Positions 1-10,462 are shown, numbered from the stretch's first letter. The stretch is 11,200 bases of DNA from a virus (IMGVR_UViG_2541047728_000018); one strand, 5' to 3'. Notes: generated by a model from the sequence alone, not told the origin. Made by a program: numbers and translations.

Positions 1-1242
1 ATGGCGAGAAAAACACACCCATTAACCACAGTGCAGATCAAAGCAGCCAGACCAGCGCAAAAGGAGTACACCCTGCAGGACGGCGGAGGGCTTTTTCTCC
101 TGGTCAAACCGTCTGGATCAAAACTCTGGAGATTTTCCTACTACCGACCATCGGACAAAAAAAGAATATTGCTGAGTTTTGGATCGCTTGAAGATGTTTC
201 CCTGGCTGATGCCAGAAAACGCCGTAGCGAGTACAGGACGTTAATCAGTGCCGGAACTGACCCGCAGGACCACGAGAGGCAAAAAAGAGAGACAGAGGCC
301 CGAAGACAAGGGAACACGTTCGAAAATGTGGCGGCGGCATGGTACCAGGTGAAAATCAGCCAGAATCTGGCCCCCAACACGATTAAAGACATCTGGCGTT
401 CGCTGGATAAATATGTATTCCCGTTCATCGGCAACACGCCAATAGATACCCTCACCGCCCGAAGGTTCGTTGAAGTGCTTACCCCCATCAAGGAGCGCGG
501 CAACCTGGAAACACTCAAGCGGGTTTTACAGCGCGTTAATGAGGTAATGGATTACGCCGCCAACAGTGGGCTGATTGATGCCAATCCGGCTATGAATGTG
601 CGTAAGGCGTTTCCCTCACCTGTAAAAAAACATATGCCAACAATCCGCCCCGAACAGCTGCCGGAGCTTATGCAGGCTTTATCAGTATCGGCAACAGAAC
701 GGCAGACCAGATTACTGATTGAATGGCAGTTACTGACCGTAACCCGTCCCGCCGAAGCGTCATCAACGCGGTGGGATGAAATCAACCTGGACGCGAAGCA
801 ATGGACGATACCTGCCGGACGCATGAAGATGCGCAGGGATCACGTTATCCCGCTTTCCGGTCAGGCTATGGCGGTGCTGGAGGCCATGAAACCAATCAGC
901 CACCACCGCAATTACGTTTTCCCAAGTCTGAAAGACCCACAGCAGCCGATGAACAGCCAGACAGCTAACGCAGCATTGCGGCGTATGGGATTCGCTGGCG
1001 TGCTGGTGTCTCATGGATTACGCGCCATATTCAGCACAGCAGCGAACGAGGAAGGATTCGAGCCGGACGTAATAGAGGCGGCACTTGCCCACGTCGACAC
1101 CAACGAAGTTAGACGGGCATACAACCGGAGCAACTACATAGAAAAACGCATCGTGCTGATGCGCTGGTGGGGCGAATTTGTCGAGGCTGCGGCGACGGGC
1201 GTAACCCTCGCCAGTGGTAAAAGGGGTATCCGAGCCGTGTAG
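1..1242 (+). CDS. int: Tyrosine-type site-specific integrase, P4-like family
   Basis: 413-aa ORF. N-terminal arm-binding-type motif (GGGLFLLVKPSGSKLWRFSYY) typical of P4-family integrases; C-terminal catalytic signature VTRPAEA (Arg), HGLRAIFST (H-x-x-R) and RRAYNRSNY (Tyr). Sits at the element boundary, as expected for an island integrase. Confidence 0.9.
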   Translation: MARKTHPLTTVQIKAARPAQKEYTLQDGGGLFLLVKPSGSKLWRFSYYRPSDKKRILLSFGSLEDVSLADARKRRSEYRTLISAGTDPQDHERQKRETEARRQGNTFENVAAAWYQVKISQNLAPNTIKDIWRSLDKYVFPFIGNTPIDTLTARRFVEVLTPIKERGNLETLKRVLQRVNEVMDYAANSGLIDANPAMNVRKAFPSPVKKHMPTIRPEQLPELMQALSVSATERQTRLLIEWQLLTVTRPAEASSTRWDEINLDAKQWTIPAGRMKMRRDHVIPLSGQAMAVLEAMKPISHHRNYVFPSLKDPQQPMNSQTANAALRRMGFAGVLVSHGLRAIFSTAANEEGFEPDVIEAALAHVDTNEVRRAYNRSNYIEKRIVLMRWWGEFVEAAATGVTLASGKRGIRAV

Positions 1243-3516: not shown

Positions 3517-3816
3517 ATGAAAAATAAAAATTCTGGCGTTACTGCCAGCGGCCCCGCTCGTCCTGAATTTATGAACGGCGATATTTACCGCGATAAATAT
3601 GGCGGCATGGTAACGATTAAAGGCGTGGCAGAACGGCGCATCACCTACCGTCGTGAAGGCTACGAATATGATTGCGTGATGCCTGTTTATCAGTTTGATC
3701 GTGATTTTTCTCTGGTGCAGGCAGCGCCCCGTAGTGTGCCCACCAGCAGGGAGAAAGCACGCGCCAATATTCAGGAAATAAAAAAGATGCTTAACGTATT
3801 CAGGGGTAAAAAATGA
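3517..3816 (+). CDS. Hypothetical protein (99 aa), translationally coupled to the primase
   Basis: SD GGAGAA upstream; its stop overlaps the primase start in ATGA (3813-3816). Confidence 0.55.
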   Translation: MKNKNSGVTASGPARPEFMNGDIYRDKYGGMVTIKGVAERRITYRREGYEYDCVMPVYQFDRDFSLVQAAPRSVPTSREKARANIQEIKKMLNVFRGKK

Positions 3817-5561
3817 AACTGGCACCGAACGTAAAAAAACAGCCACGCGGAATAAAACACAAAGACACAGAGGTAATTATTTTCGCGGGTAGTGATGCCT
3901 GGTCGCACGCGAAACAATGGCAGGAGCAGGATGGCCCCGCATCCGGCGATAATGTGCCGCCTGTGTGGCTTGGGCCAAATCAGCTTGCCGAACTTGATGC
4001 ACTGAAAATTGTTCCGGATGGAAAAAAACGCGTAAGGCTGTACCAGGCCGGAGAACTGGATTTGGTGGAGACCAAAAAGATTGGTCAGAAGCTGGCGGCG
4101 GCAGATATTCAGGACGCAAATTTTTACCCCGAAGGAATGCACGTCCAGAAGTGTGAAAACTGGCGGCGCTATCTGAATGCTGAGCGTGAAAATATTGCCG
4201 CAGGGCTTACCATGCCGGAGCAGAAAAATACGCAACTGGCACAAATGGCAGACAGTGAGCGCGCGCAGCTGCTTGCCGAGCGCTTTGATGGCGTTTGTGT
4301 GCATCCTGAAAGTGAAATCGTTCACGTATGGCGCGGCGGGGTATGGTGTCCGGTCAGCACAATGGAGCTGAGCCGCGAAATGGTGGCGATCTATTCAGAG
4401 CACAGGGCCACTTTCAGCAAGCGCGTAATCAATAACGCCGTGGAAGCGTTAAAAGTTATTGCCGAACCAATGGGCGAGCCGTCCGGCTATTTGCTGCCGT
4501 TCGCCAATGGTGCGCTTGACCTGAAAACGGGGGAATTTTCCCCGCACACGCCGGAGAACTGGATCACCACGCACAACGGCATTGAGTACACGCCACCAGC
4601 ACCCGGGGAGAACATCCGCGATAACGCGCCAAACTTTCATAAATGGCTTGAGCACGCAGCCGGAAAAGACCCGAGCAAGATGATGCGTATATGTGCCGCG
4701 CTGTACATGATTATGGCGAACCGGTACGACTGGCAGATGTTTATTGAGGCCACCGGAGACGGCGGGAGCGGTAAAAGTACATTCACACACATAGCCAGCC
4801 TTCTGGCAGGGAAACAGAACACGGTAAGCGCTGAAATGACATCGCTTGATGATGCTGGTGGACGTGCGCAGGTTGTCGGGAGTCGTCTTATCGTCCTGGC
4901 TGACCAGCCGAAATATACAGGCGAAGGAACGGGCATCAAGAAAATCACAGGCGGCGACCCCGTGGAAGTTAACCCGAAATATGAAAAGCGTTTCACGGCG
5001 GTAATCAGGGCGGTGGTGCTGGCGACCAACAACAACCCGATGATATTCACCGAACGGGCCGGAGGTGTGGCACGTCGTCGCGTGATTTTCCGTTTCGACA
5101 ATATCGTCAGTGAGGCCGAAAAAGACAGGGAGCTACCGGAAAAGATCGCGGCTGAAATCCCTGTCATTATCCGCCGATTGCTGGCGAACTTTACCGACCC
5201 TGAGAAGGCACGGGCTTTACTACTGGAACAGCGTGACGGTGATGAAGCTCTGGCAATAAAGCAACAGACGGATCCGGTTATTGAGTTTTGCCAGTTCCTG
5301 AATTTTCTGGAGGAAGCACGCGGCCTGATGATGGGCGGCGGTGGCGATTCAGTGAAGTACACGACCAGAAACAGCCTTTACCGCGTCTATCTGGCGTTTA
5401 TGGCGTACGCAGGCAGGAGCAAACCGCTAAACGTAAATGACTTTGGCAAGGCTATGAAGCCAGCCGCGAAAGTTTACGGACATGAATATATTACGCGGAA
5501 AGTTAAGGGAGTAACGCAGACTAACGCAATAACAACAGACGAGTGCGACGCGTTTTTATAA
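3813..5561 (+). CDS. Phage/plasmid primase-helicase, P4 alpha-like (D5_N / primase C-terminal type)
   Basis: 582-aa ORF with Walker A motif GDGGSGKST; overall layout of P4-family primase/helicase C-terminal region; placed between alpA and an iteron origin as in P4-like and PICI replicons. Confidence 0.85.
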   Translation: MKLAPNVKKQPRGIKHKDTEVIIFAGSDAWSHAKQWQEQDGPASGDNVPPVWLGPNQLAELDALKIVPDGKKRVRLYQAGELDLVETKKIGQKLAAADIQDANFYPEGMHVQKCENWRRYLNAERENIAAGLTMPEQKNTQLAQMADSERAQLLAERFDGVCVHPESEIVHVWRGGVWCPVSTMELSREMVAIYSEHRATFSKRVINNAVEALKVIAEPMGEPSGYLLPFANGALDLKTGEFSPHTPENWITTHNGIEYTPPAPGENIRDNAPNFHKWLEHAAGKDPSKMMRICAALYMIMANRYDWQMFIEATGDGGSGKSTFTHIASLLAGKQNTVSAEMTSLDDAGGRAQVVGSRLIVLADQPKYTGEGTGIKKITGGDPVEVNPKYEKRFTAVIRAVVLATNNNPMIFTERAGGVARRRVIFRFDNIVSEAEKDRELPEKIAAEIPVIIRRLLANFTDPEKARALLLEQRDGDEALAIKQQTDPVIEFCQFLNFLEEARGLMMGGGGDSVKYTTRNSLYRVYLAFMAYAGRSKPLNVNDFGKAMKPAAKVYGHEYITRKVKGVTQTNAITTDECDAFL

Positions 5562-6962: not shown

Positions 6963-7169
6963 ATGGCTGAAGAGAAAAAAGGCGGTGTTTCGGTGTACAT
7001 AAGCCCCGAAATCGTGGAGGTGCTCAAGCAGCGCCACAAAAAAAACTATGAGGCTGGCGTGGCGGCTGGACTGGATCCGCTGATGACGCCGGAGCCGTCG
7101 ATAGGTTCACTTGTACGCTCTTATTTACTTGCGGCGCTTGGGATGCATAAAAATTATGGGGGTGAATAA
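6963..7169 (+). CDS. Hypothetical protein (68 aa), first gene of the head module
   Basis: ORF whose stop (TAA 7167-7169) overlaps the capsid gene ATG (7169-7171); purine-rich SD upstream. Confidence 0.45.
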   Translation: MAEEKKGGVSVYISPEIVEVLKQRHKKNYEAGVAAGLDPLMTPEPSIGSLVRSYLLAALGMHKNYGGE

Positions 7170-8224
7170 TGGCAGGCAAAGCAACGGCACTTAACACTAA
7201 CCAGCTTTTCATGTACCTGAATCGCGGGGATATTGCGGATTTTAAATTCAGCCCTCTGTTTACCACGCTGTTTTTCCCGAACGTGGCGACATTCAGCACG
7301 CAAAACATCATGCTGGATACCCTGGACATTGAAGAAGTCACCATGTCGGCGTTTTGTTCGCCTATGGTGGGTAGCCAGGTTCAGCGCGATAAAGGGTACG
7401 AAACCAGCACAATCAAACCTGGCTACATGAAGCCAAAGCACGAAATCGATCCAACGAAAACCATCATGCGCATGGCTGGAGAAGATCCGGCACAGCTTAA
7501 CGACCCTACCTATCGCCGTATGCGCCTGATTACTGGCAACATGCGCCGCCAGATAAACGCCATTAAGGCACGCGTGGAATGGCTGGCGGTGAATGCGGTA
7601 ACGACCGGAAAAAACATCATTGAGGGCGAAGGCATAGAACGCTATGAAATCGACTGGAAAATACCGGAAAACTGCATCATAGAGCAGGCCAAGGGTAAAA
7701 AATGGTCCGAGCAGGATAAAGACATGCACGACCCAATCTATGACATCGAGCTTTATGCTGATCAGGCTGGTTGCCCCGCAAACGTCATGATTATGGGCGC
7801 TGAGGTATGGCGAACGTTACGCAGCTTTAAAAAATTCCGTGAGCTGTACGATCTTTCCCGTGGTTCAGAGTCCGCCGCAGAGCTGGCCTGTAAAAACCTG
7901 GGCGAAGTGGTGAGCTTTAAAGGCTATCTGGGCGATATTGCCCTTATCGTCTATTCCGGCAAATACACTGACAGCGACGGCACAGAAAAATATTTCCTTG
8001 AGCCTGATTTGCTGGTTCTGGGCAGCACCAACAATAAAGGGCTGGTGGCCTATGGTGCGATTATGGATCAGGACGCAGTAAGAACGGGCGCAACGCAAAA
8101 CATGTTTTACCCGAAAAACTGGATTGAGGACGGCGATCCGGCGATTGAGTACGTGCAGACGCACAGCGCACCGCAGCCGGTTCCGGCAGATATTCGCAAA
8201 TTTGTTACCGTCAAAATTGGTTAA
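7169..8224 (+). CDS. Major capsid protein, lambda gpE family
   Basis: 351 aa. Collinear similarity to lambda gpE recalled from memory: KFSPLFTTLFFPN vs KFDPLFLRLFFRE; PGYMKPKHEIDP vs PGYVKPKHEVNP; DPTYRRMRLITGNMR vs DPAYRRRRIIMQNMR; YPKNWIEDGDPAIEYVQTHSAP vs YPKNWVTTGDPAREFTMIQSAP. Good SD GGGGGTGA. Confidence 0.85.
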   Translation: MAGKATALNTNQLFMYLNRGDIADFKFSPLFTTLFFPNVATFSTQNIMLDTLDIEEVTMSAFCSPMVGSQVQRDKGYETSTIKPGYMKPKHEIDPTKTIMRMAGEDPAQLNDPTYRRMRLITGNMRRQINAIKARVEWLAVNAVTTGKNIIEGEGIERYEIDWKIPENCIIEQAKGKKWSEQDKDMHDPIYDIELYADQAGCPANVMIMGAEVWRTLRSFKKFRELYDLSRGSESAAELACKNLGEVVSFKGYLGDIALIVYSGKYTDSDGTEKYFLEPDLLVLGSTNNKGLVAYGAIMDQDAVRTGATQNMFYPKNWIEDGDPAIEYVQTHSAPQPVPADIRKFVTVKIG

Positions 8225-8235
8225 CGGGGGATTCT

Positions 8236-8571
8236 ATGGACACTCCATACATTGAGTTATTTGCAGGCAGTCAGCAGGTCGCCACGACGCTGGTACATTT
8301 TGCCGCTGATGCTGGCGTTATTCAGGAATTTACCCCGCTGATGCTGGCGGACAATGGCGAGTTTAAGCCGTGGGATGGTAAGGAATCTGGCAAGGCTGTT
8401 TATCTGACCTCGTACCCTGTGGACACGTCAAAGCAGAAATCAGCACAGTGTTACAAGACGGGGATATTCAATATTGCCGCCGTTAACTGGCCTGAGAGCG
8501 TCGACACCGATGCGAAAAAATGCGCCGCCTTTGCGGGTTCTGGCGTATCCGTTCAGCCGCTGGCCCGATAA
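8236..8571 (+). CDS. Head decoration protein, lambda gpD-like
   Basis: 111 aa. TPLMLADNGEFKPWDG vs gpD TPLMLDTSSRKLVAWDG; YKTGIFNIAAVNWPESVDTDAKKCAAFAGSGVSVQ vs [43 protein letters not shown]. Confidence 0.75.
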   Translation: MDTPYIELFAGSQQVATTLVHFAADAGVIQEFTPLMLADNGEFKPWDGKESGKAVYLTSYPVDTSKQKSAQCYKTGIFNIAAVNWPESVDTDAKKCAAFAGSGVSVQPLAR

Positions 8572-8583
8572 GCAGGGGGAACG

Positions 8584-8997
8584 ATGGCAACGAATGAAAG
8601 CATCATGACGCTACCGCTGGCGAGTAAATTTAAAGCCGAAGCGCGGGCAATGGCTGACAGAGGTTTATCAACCTATGAGGCCGTATATCAACTAAACAAA
8701 CTGGAAGAGCAGGACAAGCCGCGCGCTGATGCGATTATGGCGCTTGATGAATCTGGCGACTATCAGCCGCTGTTACGTGCAATGGCAAACGTGCCTTGTA
8801 TCGATGTTGGTACGGCTAAAAGCATCCTTAGCATGACCATAGAGCAGGAACGTCCGAAGGTTGCGCCGGAACTTACTGCAGCCTTTGAAAACTTTATGGA
8901 CATGCACAGCCCGCAAGCCGTATCAGCTGGCATGGCATACGATGGCAGAAACCAGGGCGATGACGGCGACATCGATCGCATACTGAAAACCATCTGA
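8584..8997 (+). CDS. Hypothetical protein (137 aa) in the head module
   Basis: Good SD AGGGGGA, tight spacing after the decoration gene, followed by a terminator. No recognisable family. Confidence 0.5.
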   Translation: MATNESIMTLPLASKFKAEARAMADRGLSTYEAVYQLNKLEEQDKPRADAIMALDESGDYQPLLRAMANVPCIDVGTAKSILSMTIEQERPKVAPELTAAFENFMDMHSPQAVSAGMAYDGRNQGDDGDIDRILKTI

Positions 8998-9003
8998 GAC
9001 AAG

Positions 9004-9027
9004 GCCGGAGAAATCCGGCTTTTTTTT
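9004..9027 (+). terminator. Rho-independent terminator closing the head module
   Basis: Stem GCCGGA / TCCGGC with GAAA loop, followed by 8 T. Confidence 0.65.
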
Positions 9028-9029
9028 AT

Positions 9030-9138
9030 GGGTCCTTTCCGGCATATGGACCCGTTACGGGGCGGCGACCTCGCGGTTTTTCGCTATTTATGAGCTTTTT
9101 CAGGGGGGTGGTGGTGGTTTTGTTGTTTGCTCTATCTT
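9030..9138 (+). other. cos site (cosQ-like, lambda-identical cosN, non-lambda cosB) upstream of the Nu1-like gene
   Basis: GGGTCCTTTCCGG (9030-9042) matches the lambda right-end cosQ-proximal sequence; CGTTACGGGGCGGCGACCTCGCGG carries the lambda 12-nt cohesive end GGGCGGCGACCT (9060-9071). Downstream sequence diverges from lambda cosB (no CGTTTCC-type R sites). Confidence 0.7.
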
Positions 9139-9165
9139 TATGAATGAAAAGGGAAAGATGCAAAC

Positions 9166-9203
9166 AATACACCAACCTGAAGCAGTAATTAAGTTGGTGT
9201 ATT
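9166..9203. promoter_or_regulatory. Perfect 11-bp inverted repeat AATACACCAAC / GTTGGTGTATT just upstream of the Nu1-like start codon
   Basis: Arms at 9166-9176 and 9193-9203 with 16-nt spacer; the right arm ends 2 nt before the ATG at 9205. Could be a cosB-type binding site or an RBS-occluding stem-loop. Confidence 0.3.
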
Positions 9204-9204
9204 A

Positions 9205-9747
9205 ATGAAATCGCACCTGATGAACAAAAAAAACATGGCGAAAAGCTGCCGTGTAAGTGCGACAGCGTTCGACAAGTGGGGAGTGACTCCCGTTGAACGT
9301 AAAGGCCGTGAGGCGTTTTACGATGTTGCCAGCGTGATAGACAATAGGGTTAACAATGCAATTAGCCAGCTTACAAACGACAAAGGCGATATTGATGATG
9401 ATGAACTCTTACGAGTCAGGATCAGATTACTGACAGCACAGGCGGAGGCGCAGGAACTTAAAAACGAGCGCGATCGCGGTGACGTGATTGATACTGAGTT
9501 TTGCCTGTACGCGCTTTCAAAGCTGGCGAGTCAGATTTCATCAATCATGGACAGCCTCCCGCTTACTATGCAAAGGAGCTTCCCACAGATTACCCCCGCC
9601 ATGCTGGATAGGCTTAAAAGGGAAGTGGTTAAAGCCTGTAATGCCAGTGCCAGAGTTGCCGACAACCTCCCACAGATACTGGCTGATTACTTGAAAGAAA
9701 CAACCGGAAACGTACCGGAAAAGTTGCTACAGAAGAAAGGCGAGTAA
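9205..9747 (+). CDS. Terminase small subunit, lambda Nu1-like (possible packaging-redirection TerS)
   Basis: 180 aa. LLTAQAEAQELKNERDRGDVIDTEFCLYALSKLASQISSIMDSLPLTMQRSFPQI vs lambda Nu1 LTRAQADAQELKNARDSAEVVETAFCTFVLSRIAGEIASILDGLPLSVQRRFPEL; N-terminal wHTH region (NKKNMAKSC...FYDVASVI) is related but diverged. Alternative starts at 9220 or 9235; SD is weak. Confidence 0.8.
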   Translation: MKSHLMNKKNMAKSCRVSATAFDKWGVTPVERKGREAFYDVASVIDNRVNNAISQLTNDKGDIDDDELLRVRIRLLTAQAEAQELKNERDRGDVIDTEFCLYALSKLASQISSIMDSLPLTMQRSFPQITPAMLDRLKREVVKACNASARVADNLPQILADYLKETTGNVPEKLLQKKGE

Positions 9748-9775
9748 CAGACGCGCAATTATTGAACAAAACTGA

Positions 9776-9969
9776 GAAACGACATGAAAGCGTCATAAAT
9801 CGCCATTTTAGATGATTACCGTGTCGTTTCTTTTTATTGTGTATCTATTTAAAAACAAATAGTTATGTTCGAGAAGTACCGACATGCTTTTTCCAGAAAA
9901 ATTTTCATAAACAGATAAAAACCGCGAGGTCGCCGCCCCGTAACGGGTCCATAATTCCAGGAAGGACCC
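9776..9969 (-). other. Complete lambda-type cos (cosQ, cosN, cosB with R-site-like repeats) in inverted orientation
   Basis: 9917-9952 is the exact reverse complement of 9046-9081. Read on the minus strand, the flank resembles lambda cosB: TTTATGAAAATTTTTCTGG; AAAAGAAACGACACGG; CATGTCGTTTCTCAGTTTTGTTC (compare lambda TTTATGAAAATTTTCCGG; AAAGGAAACGACAGGTG; CTGTCGTTTCCTTTCTCTGTTTTTGTCC). cosQ-like GGGTCCTTCCTGG is the complement of 9957-9969. Confidence 0.65.
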
Positions 9970-10003
9970 GACGACACCAGACAATCAGAACGATGGGTGC
10001 ACA

Positions 10004-10285
10004 ATGACAGAAGCCGAAATACTGGGATTAATCCGCCGTGCTGGTGGAATCAGCCAGCAGACTGACGAACAGGCCACGCAGCCGGACAGCGTGACAGCCG
10101 AAAATTATGCGCGTGTTGTTGCTGAGGTGATGCGCCGTGATGGTATCCAGCTTAATGATGTGGATATGCGCAACATACGGATCCGCGTTCTTGAAATGCT
10201 GGCCTACAATCGCCGCGTGGCACTGTATCGGGAAACGGAGAAAATTACATACCACTGGAAGAAGCCGGAGCGGTTGCGGCGGTAA
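10004..10285 (+). CDS. Hypothetical protein (93 aa)
   Basis: ORF with weak SD, immediately outside the inverted cos; Arg-rich C-terminus. No recognisable family. Confidence 0.4.
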   Translation: MTEAEILGLIRRAGGISQQTDEQATQPDSVTAENYARVVAEVMRRDGIQLNDVDMRNIRIRVLEMLAYNRRVALYRETEKITYHWKKPERLRR

Positions 10286-10462
10286 CTGGTTGATATTTTC
10301 GAAATTCGCCAGCGGCGAACATCGGGGAAACCAGCCTAACCCGTTGATATTTTCGGGAACCTCAAATTGAGGAGGTCGGAAACATAACCCGTCATATTCT
10401 GGATGCTGATAATTACCACGCAGCCCATTAAGGCCTAACCCGTTGATTCTTTCGGAAACAGC
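10281..10462. repeat. About four imperfect tandem repeats (period about 48-54 bp) with core TAACCCGTTGATATTTTCGG and recurring CGGAAAC
   Basis: GTTGATATTTTCG at 10289-10301 and 10343-10355; TAACCC at 10337, 10385, 10436; variant cores TAACCCGTCATATTCTGG and TAACCCGTTGATTCTTTCGG. Confidence 0.5.

Follow-up and report, generated by a model that had tools for sequence, protein, structure and literature searches.

Why should a phage satellite keep two packaging sites that point at each other, and which terminase would each of them serve? The question is raised by IMGVR_UViG_2541047728_000018, a viral sequence of 11,200 nucleotides (nt) that was analysed over its whole length and is referred to here as the window. 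It represents a satellite island of Escherichia coli of about 10.5 kb in which terS, a gene for a small terminase, is bracketed by two inward-facing lambda-type cos sites. We lean towards the answer that the left site, cos1, is private to the island and that the right site, cos2, is of a helper type, the two being complete cos sites placed face to face. Among the roles that a first-pass annotation of this DNA had suggested, a dual-specificity packaging signal is the one best supported by our sequence comparisons.

The sequence anatomy bore out most of that annotation. Positions 9046-9081 and 9917-9952 are exact 36-bp reverse complements, and each contains the 12-nt cohesive-end sequence of lambda, GGGCGGCGACCT, which occurs only twice in the window, at 9060-9071 on the plus strand (cosN1) and at 9927-9938 on the minus strand (cosN2). 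Within 11.2 kb a perfect inverted repeat of this length is far beyond chance, and it forms part of a wider, imperfect repeat of 56 nt (9045-9100 and 9898-9953, 89%), whose arms hold the two cosN sequences. The 12-nt cohesive end is accompanied by flanking partial symmetry at both sites, with identical flanks. The cosQ-like boxes of GGGTCC type noted on the outer side of each copy were found as described, GGGTCCTTTCCGG at 9030-9042 on the plus strand and GGGTCCTTCCTGG at 9957-9969 on the minus strand, such that cosQ lies upstream of cosN at both sites. The longer cosQ1 element TTTATGGGTCCTTTCCGG (9025-9042, plus strand) aligns with lambda cosQ and is 98% conserved among 49 unique relatives, and cosQ2, TCGTCGGGTCCTTCCTGG in minus-strand reading (9957-9974), aligns with phage cosQ. 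That the repeat might stem from faulty assembly, or that one copy might lack the nicking core, had been raised as possible objections. The cos1-terS-cos2 block (8900-10100) was present with at least 80% coverage in 484 of 5426 complete E. coli genomes, which rules out an assembly artefact, and both copies carry the 12-nt cosN.

Scanning for motifs revealed the same canonical order of R3, inverted R2 and R1 at both sites, with similar offsets and different R words; this is the layout of lambda-like phages (PMC9026076). In cosB1 (9072-9204, plus strand), R3 is GGTGGTGGTGG at 9107-9117 (plus strand, offset +48 to +58), the inverted R2 is GGTTGGTGTATT at 9166-9177 (minus strand, +107 to +118) and R1 is GTTGGTGTATT at 9193-9203 (plus strand, +134 to +144). 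The first-pass annotation was correct in placing the left site in the lambda arrangement with respect to terS, but its description of the adjoining tract as non-lambda did not hold, as this is itself a cosB of canonical layout whose three R sites have another R word. cosB1 is island-specific: it is conserved together with TerS in relatives and had no match among phages. On the other side, cosB2 (9748-9926, minus strand) abuts the 3' end of terS and is lambda-like, as had been proposed. Its R3 is CATGTCGGT at 9878-9886 (read on the minus strand, +53 to +61), its R2, inverted relative to cos2, is CGTGTCGTT at 9820-9828 (+111 to +119) and its R1 is CATGTCGTT at 9778-9786 (read on the minus strand, +153 to +161); the R-site-like repeats recognised earlier, GAAACGACA at 9776-9784 and TGTCGTTTC at 9822-9830, belong to this set of three. 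The cos2 spacer aligns with the I1 region of lambda, and the motif scan detected a strict integration host factor consensus at neither cos site. This anatomy supports two convergent sites from which packaging is expected to proceed in opposite directions.

The gene between them had been called Nu1-like, and this was confirmed. terS (9205-9747, plus strand) encodes a full-length Nu1-family small terminase of 180 amino acids (aa) that scores 83 bits against Pfam PF07471 (Phage_Nu1), well over the gathering cut-off of 30, and matches phrog_57 with an E value of 3e-53. TerS has 35% identity with lambda Nu1 over 179 aligned positions. Its C-terminal two thirds are conserved with phage Nu1 and its presumed N-terminal DNA-binding part is divergent, the region in which a winged helix-turn-helix domain would be expected being aligned with Nu1 but gapped. 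A sequence search of the PDB with TerS returned chance matches only, with none to the lambda Nu1 domain or to RppC, and a single-sequence AlphaFold model (mean predicted local distance difference test score, pLDDT, 55) was too poor to use.

The first-pass annotation had suspected the architecture to be undescribed. In this respect it was mistaken: a two-cos layout around a specificity gene is not new but has been published for EcCICFT073, the prototype phage-inducible chromosomal island (PICI) of Gram-negative bacteria (PMC6092414; Fillol-Salom et al. 2018 ISME J). In that island the 144-aa rppA gene occupies the terS position inside an inverted cos pair (cosN at 7559 on the plus strand and at 8298 on the minus strand of locus L002). 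The sequences labelled 'cos1' and 'cos2' in Fig S1A of a subsequent paper (PMC6739421; 2019 Mol Cell) are this pair, with cos2 printed as its reverse complement. Both sites of the window align with lambda cos, and the convergent layout recurs in other E. coli genomes as well as in EcCICFT073. The two islands share the gene order integrase, primase, single-stranded DNA-binding protein (SSB), E-like capsid protein, D-like decoration protein, 137-aa open reading frame (ORF), specificity gene and 93-aa ORF; in both, the specificity gene lies between two cos sites that face inward and have near-identical cosQ and cosN flanks, and in EcCICFT073, too, cos2 is phage-type and the cassette also occurs flipped. 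As in the EcCICFT073 family generally, the window has its integrase at one end, a primase/replicase of its own, cos1 and cos2 flanking the specificity gene, and the integrase, primase, SSB, head, terS and 93-aa genes all on the plus strand. A size near 10-12 kb and a chromosomal site not used by prophages, also typical of the family, were judged on the corresponding island of strain Combat2C1 (L001, yljB/clpS).

The differences lie in the specificity modules. RppA of EcCICFT073 must pair with phage TerS, whereas the window encodes a Nu1-family TerS with its own part for binding the large terminase, TerL. cosB1 of the window has three R sites in contrast to the single R3-like site proposed for the Rpp-type cos1 in the review by Murialdo and Feiss, which deals with cos1 only (PMC9026076), and cosB2 of the window is of the PhiR5_1/phage 4/lambda-like type whereas that of EcCICFT073 is PhiR12-like. 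We considered whether terS could itself be an Rpp, that is a protein of about 140-155 aa pairing with phage TerS. This was ruled out by its full-length Phage_Nu1 match with the conserved C-terminal part, and Pfam and phrog profile searches revealed no Rpp-like ORF in the rest of the window. A further observation concerns the R3 word of cos1, GGTGGTGGTGG, which is the reverse complement of CACCACCACC in the proposed R3-PICI of EcCICFT073 cos1 (L002 7611-7622). Their distances from cosN are similar, a hint that the DNA-binding specificities of TerS-type and Rpp-type cos1 may be related. Judged by gene order and cos layout, the window element is a TerS-bearing variant of the same island family and probably works like EcCICFT073.

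The EcCICFT073 sites have been assayed by deletion, plasmid cloning and cosB swaps (PMC6092414; PMC6739421). A plasmid carrying either cos1 or cos2 was transduced by both lambda and phi80. Transfer of the island was lowered by deletion of cos1, raised by deletion of cos2 and abolished by the double deletion, so that cos2 alone must sustain some transfer. RppA stimulates the cosB of cos1 only. The authors did not find a phage cosB in the island and left the purpose of the second site open (PMC6092414; PMC6739421). Searching the literature, we came across no subsequent publication that deals with cos2, the inverted orientation or a Nu1-type TerS of the EcCICFT073 family, nor any additional information about the PhiR phages. 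What appears to be undescribed is the canonical cosB with its different R words at each of the two sites, including a three-R cosB1 that goes with a satellite TerS, as well as the phage-type nature of cos2, its diversity and the flipping of the cassette.

With regard to the second site, alignment showed that cos2 of the window is colinear with the cos regions of PhiR5_1, of CFT073 phage 4, which is the natural helper of EcCICFT073, and of lambda, running through cosQ, R3, spacer, R2 and R1, and that the similarity ends at the position of the Nu1 start codon. The best phage match was PhiR5_1, with 83.6% identity over 151 nt. In EcCICFT073, cos2 has 93.3% identity with PhiR12 phages over 179 nt, and a query of its cosB2 without cosN matched, with 96-97% identity, E. 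coli prophage DNA that immediately precedes terS-terL. A third cos2 type, found in relatives, matches phi458 and mEp460 with 86-88% identity; the related record mEp460_4F5 starts inside this match, as is expected at a cohesive end. At least four cos2 types could be distinguished. All of them have a complete cosQ and cosN and three R sites in the correct orientation, and all end near the Nu1 start position. cos2 is homologous to real phage cos sites.

Which protein these R sites address is suggested by an island of an O157:H7 strain, whose TerS is 98% identical to that of the window, with the same first 50 residues, and whose cosB1 is nearly identical. In its cos2 all three R sites are swapped together, CAGATCC standing for CATGTCG of the window, and the remaining scaffold is conserved. 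The type of cos2 is uncoupled from the island TerS, and the notion that the R sites of cos2 are targets of this TerS was ruled out, since they are wholly different where the protein is 98% identical and its first 50 residues are the same. Concerted replacement of this kind fits selection for recognition by another protein, which would most simply be the TerS of a helper phage. Independently of this, we noted an Rpp-type island in strain JE86-ST05 (L008 2201-2430) in which the cosB of cos2 is not phage-like: it carries three GGTTGTTGTATT-like R sites and resembles the TerS-type cosB1 of the window. A satellite-type specificity can thus be copied at the second site as well.

From these comparisons we infer which protein binds which site, how packaging polarity operates at the pair and why the orientation is inverted. 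The island TerS would bind the three GGTKGGTGKWTT-like R sites of cosB1 through its divergent N-terminal domain, and its conserved C-terminal part would recruit the large terminase of the helper to cosN1, with packaging running rightwards. cos2 would act as a copy of a lambdoid phage cos with the R3-R2-R1 set of that phage type, at which the unmodified helper terminase could start packaging leftwards. Packaging in lambda is polar and termination requires cosQ-cosN in the correct orientation, as known from work of the Feiss laboratory. It follows that a packaging series begun at either site should run past the opposed one and stop at the next cos of its own orientation, so that whole island units with identical 12-nt ends would result from both routes. 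The inverted orientation itself may be protective. Direct repeats 0.87 kb apart would permit terS to be lost, either through recombination or through packaging from cos to cos, whereas inverted repeats would permit inversion only, recombination or double cutting flipping the terS cassette without deleting it, and inversion is what is seen in nature in the form of flipped cassettes.

The finding that both of the homologous EcCICFT073 sites support transduction (PMC6092414; PMC6739421) is in favour of a private site combined with a helper-type site. Three points weigh against it. Deletion of EcCICFT073 cos2 raised transfer by lambda and phi80, so that cos2 is a cost with these helpers (PMC6092414; PMC6739421); the cosB types of lambda and phi80 mismatch EcCICFT073 cos2, which may explain the gain. 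Second, cos2 is dispensable. In our survey of 80 IMG/VR loci encoding this TerS it was present in about 40, absent in 24 and reduced to a remnant in 7, with a further 9 loci ending at a contig edge. Third, neither a second cosB2 copy nor a matching resident helper prophage was found, at the megablast level, in the 100 complete E. coli genomes that carry exact cosB2 (9748-9926, at least 99% identity), a set that includes probiotic and reference strains in wide use, namely Nissle 1917, with its engineered derivative SYNB1934, and ATCC 25922.

Flipped cassettes were detected with an artificial query in which the segment from cosN1 through cosB1, terS and cosB2 to cosN2 (9046-9952) had been reverse-complemented. 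It gave single-piece, full-length matches in five complete genomes that fall into two groups of 95.5% and 89.4% identity. In L010 and L011 the flanks are unchanged and terS between them is read from the opposite strand; the phage-type cosB adjoins the left flank and cosB1-terS the right one. Of the genomes with the RppA cassette of EcCICFT073, 68 have it in the published orientation and 15 have it flipped. Altogether 5 of 489 genomes with the TerS-type and 15 of 83 with the RppA-type cassette are flipped, in at least three separate lineages. As sequencing reads are much longer than the repeats and the isolates are many and of varied source and country, the flips represent real rearrangements that arose in at least three independent events, and they show that inverted cos repeats of this short length do recombine in natural genomes. 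One route would be homologous recombination on the 25-36 bp of perfect identity. In another, both inverted sites would be cut by terminase, releasing a fragment with the 5'-GGGCGGCGACCT overhang at each end and leaving complementary flanks, and such a fragment could religate in either orientation or move between islands and phages.

This second route leads to the tentative proposal, possible though well short of even odds in our estimation, that the two cosN cores delimit a mobile, reversible 'cos cassette'. If so, it would explain not only the flipped cassettes but also the swapping of TerS, Rpp and phage-type cosB modules among otherwise similar islands, and why satellites keep a second, helper-type cos, which would widen the range of helpers that package them. 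Variation is not confined to cosB. Other 12-nt cosN sequences were observed at cos1 of L059, L070, L087 and L092 (GGGCGGAAGGCG, GGGCGTCAGGCG, GGGCGGCAGACG and GGGCGGCTGACG) and at cos2 of L081-L091, L093 and L095 (GGGCGGGAGCAT or GGGGTAGCCATA), and hence cos1 and cos2 of one island can differ in cohesive end as well as in cosB.

Alternatively, cos2 could be without present function, a harmless leftover of cos recombination between an island and a phage or another satellite, with the flips as neutral products of recombination. The absence or truncation of cos2 in many relatives would agree with this, as would the satellite-like cos2 of JE86-ST05 and the harmlessness of cos2 deletion from EcCICFT073 in the laboratory. 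Furthermore, when TerS-type and Rpp-type islands are compared, sequence similarity is lost on either side just within the cosN region, which is where exchange at conserved cosQ-cosN should leave a break. We nevertheless regard a mere leftover as unlikely. A decaying scar should lose its R sites piecemeal, whereas they have been replaced in concert on a conserved scaffold, and the at least four cos2 types have all kept the complete set of elements and the end near the Nu1 start. In CFT073, moreover, cosB2 is 96-97% identical to that of prophages with terS-terL, and cos2 works when cloned. As to the truncated forms, the seven remnant loci retain cosQ2 and 8 nt of cosN2 only, joined to the terS stop codon. 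Two one-cos relatives in which these elements stand directly at the terS stop codon (L006 2216-2292 and L057 2041-2117) have a clean deletion of cosB2, which shows the loss of cos2 in such relatives to be secondary. The remnants stop 4 nt inside the cohesive-end sequence, off the nick position, and thus provide no evidence for a deletion made by terminase.

Still less probable, in our view, is that cos2 serves mainly for interference, as a high-copy decoy that draws helper terminase off phage DNA or provokes cuts harmful to phage packaging, with packaging of the island from cos2 as a side effect. Islands of this family do interfere strongly with helper reproduction (PMC6092414; PMC6739421), the cosB at cos2 is phage-type, and the loss of cos2 does not cut transfer of EcCICFT073 by lambda or phi80. 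However, interference by EcCICFT073 is accounted for by RppA, and any terminase that a complete cos had captured on island DNA undergoing replication would go on to package this DNA, which makes a decoy hard to separate from a second packaging route. Finally, it is most improbable that the inverted pair is a phase-variation switch for terS or rpp expression or for packaging direction: both orientations do occur naturally at the frequencies and in the separate lineages given above, but the island has no invertase gene, the flipped forms look clonal with the same identity values within each group, a flip leaves each cosB beside the same cosN, and an intrinsic terminator directly upstream of cosQ1 (9001-9029, plus strand; a 9-bp stem with a T run after it) already stands between the cassette and the upstream operon, so that orientation may not affect expression. 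A promoter scan of 8900-10100 detected no sigma-70-like promoter.

A private site next to a helper-type site can be set against other known packaging strategies. The window shares with lambda the 12-nt cohesive end and flanking cosN, an equally distant cosQ box, similar offsets of R3, inverted R2 and R1, and a Nu1 homologue following cos1. It differs from lambda in having two opposed sites 0.87 kb apart, no terS after cos2, R words that deviate from those of lambda at both sites, and no large terminase gene. In pac-type Staphylococcus aureus pathogenicity islands (SaPIs), a TerS homologue encoded by the satellite likewise redirects the large terminase of the helper to a satellite-specific site (Ubeda et al. 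2007, as cited in PMC6739421). In contrast, those islands use headful (pac) packaging, a TerS of an unrelated family and a separate inhibitor, Ppi, and are not known to have a second, helper-type site. cos2 of the window resembles the strategy of P4 and SaPIbov5, which carry the cos of their helper; these elements depend on the helper-type site only, whereas the window adds a private site and its own TerS. For another satellite, SaPIbov4, two putative cos sites have been reported (PMC6092414).

The remaining genes of the window are in line with a satellite. The island encodes an integrase, a weakly AlpA-like ORF, a DUF4222 protein, a D5-type primase, SSB, the E-like capsid protein, the D-like decoration protein, the 137-aa ORF, TerS and the 93-aa ORF, and strain Combat2C1 (L001) has a near-identical island of about 10.5 kb, flanked by cspD/yljB and clpS, in which the copy of the cos region is 99.9% identical. 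The tyrosine integrase at the left end (1-1242, plus strand) matches Pfam Phage_integrase, Phage_int_M and Arm-DNA-bind_3. A 68-aa ORF (1739-1945) aligns with the whole Pfam Phage_AlpA profile, weakly, at 17.6 bits and below the 21-bit cut-off; its counterpart in L001 is annotated as a helix-turn-helix regulator. The island replication gene encodes a D5-type primase/helicase (3813-5561, plus strand; Pfam D5_N, DUF5906 and Pox_D5) and has the same position as the primase-family gene of EcCICFT073. A partial lambda-like head module (7169-8997, plus strand) is composed of the E-like major capsid gene (7169-8224, Pfam Phage_cap_E), the D-like decoration gene (8236-8571, Pfam HDPD) and the 137-aa ORF (8584-8997). 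The first two are the positional counterparts of c1499 and c1500, the deletion of which left both transfer and interference of the CFT073 island unaltered (PMC6092414). The 137-aa ORF belongs to phrog_1999, matches the final 70 or so residues of the head maturation protease family phrog_53 weakly (E value 1e-8) and may be a scaffold-like fragment; a PDB sequence search with it gave chance matches only. A capsid-forming PICI was ruled out, as neither the window nor the matching island L001 has a portal, protease or large terminase gene. The conserved 93-aa ORF (10004-10285, plus strand; phrog_1561) begins just beyond cosQ2 and follows cos2 or, in one-cos relatives, directly terS. Downstream of it, direct repeats of 27 nt were noted at 10280, 10334 and 10433, as were repeats of 31 nt at 10398 and 10661; located close to the right island end, they may be integrase or excisionase arm sites.

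For the EcCICFT073 family, the comparison places a full Nu1-type TerS at the exact rpp position, between the same flanks, and shows cos2 to be a phage cos, faithfully copied, that is of different types in different islands. If a private site is indeed combined with a helper-type site, cos2 should perform best with helpers of matching cosB, independently of the TerS or Rpp of the island. Together, the identity and diversity of cos2, the three-R cosB1 and the flipped cassettes make the acknowledged question of the second site directly testable. With exact cosB2 present in E. coli Nissle 1917 and ATCC 25922, this also bears on the use of such islands as DNA-delivery vehicles.

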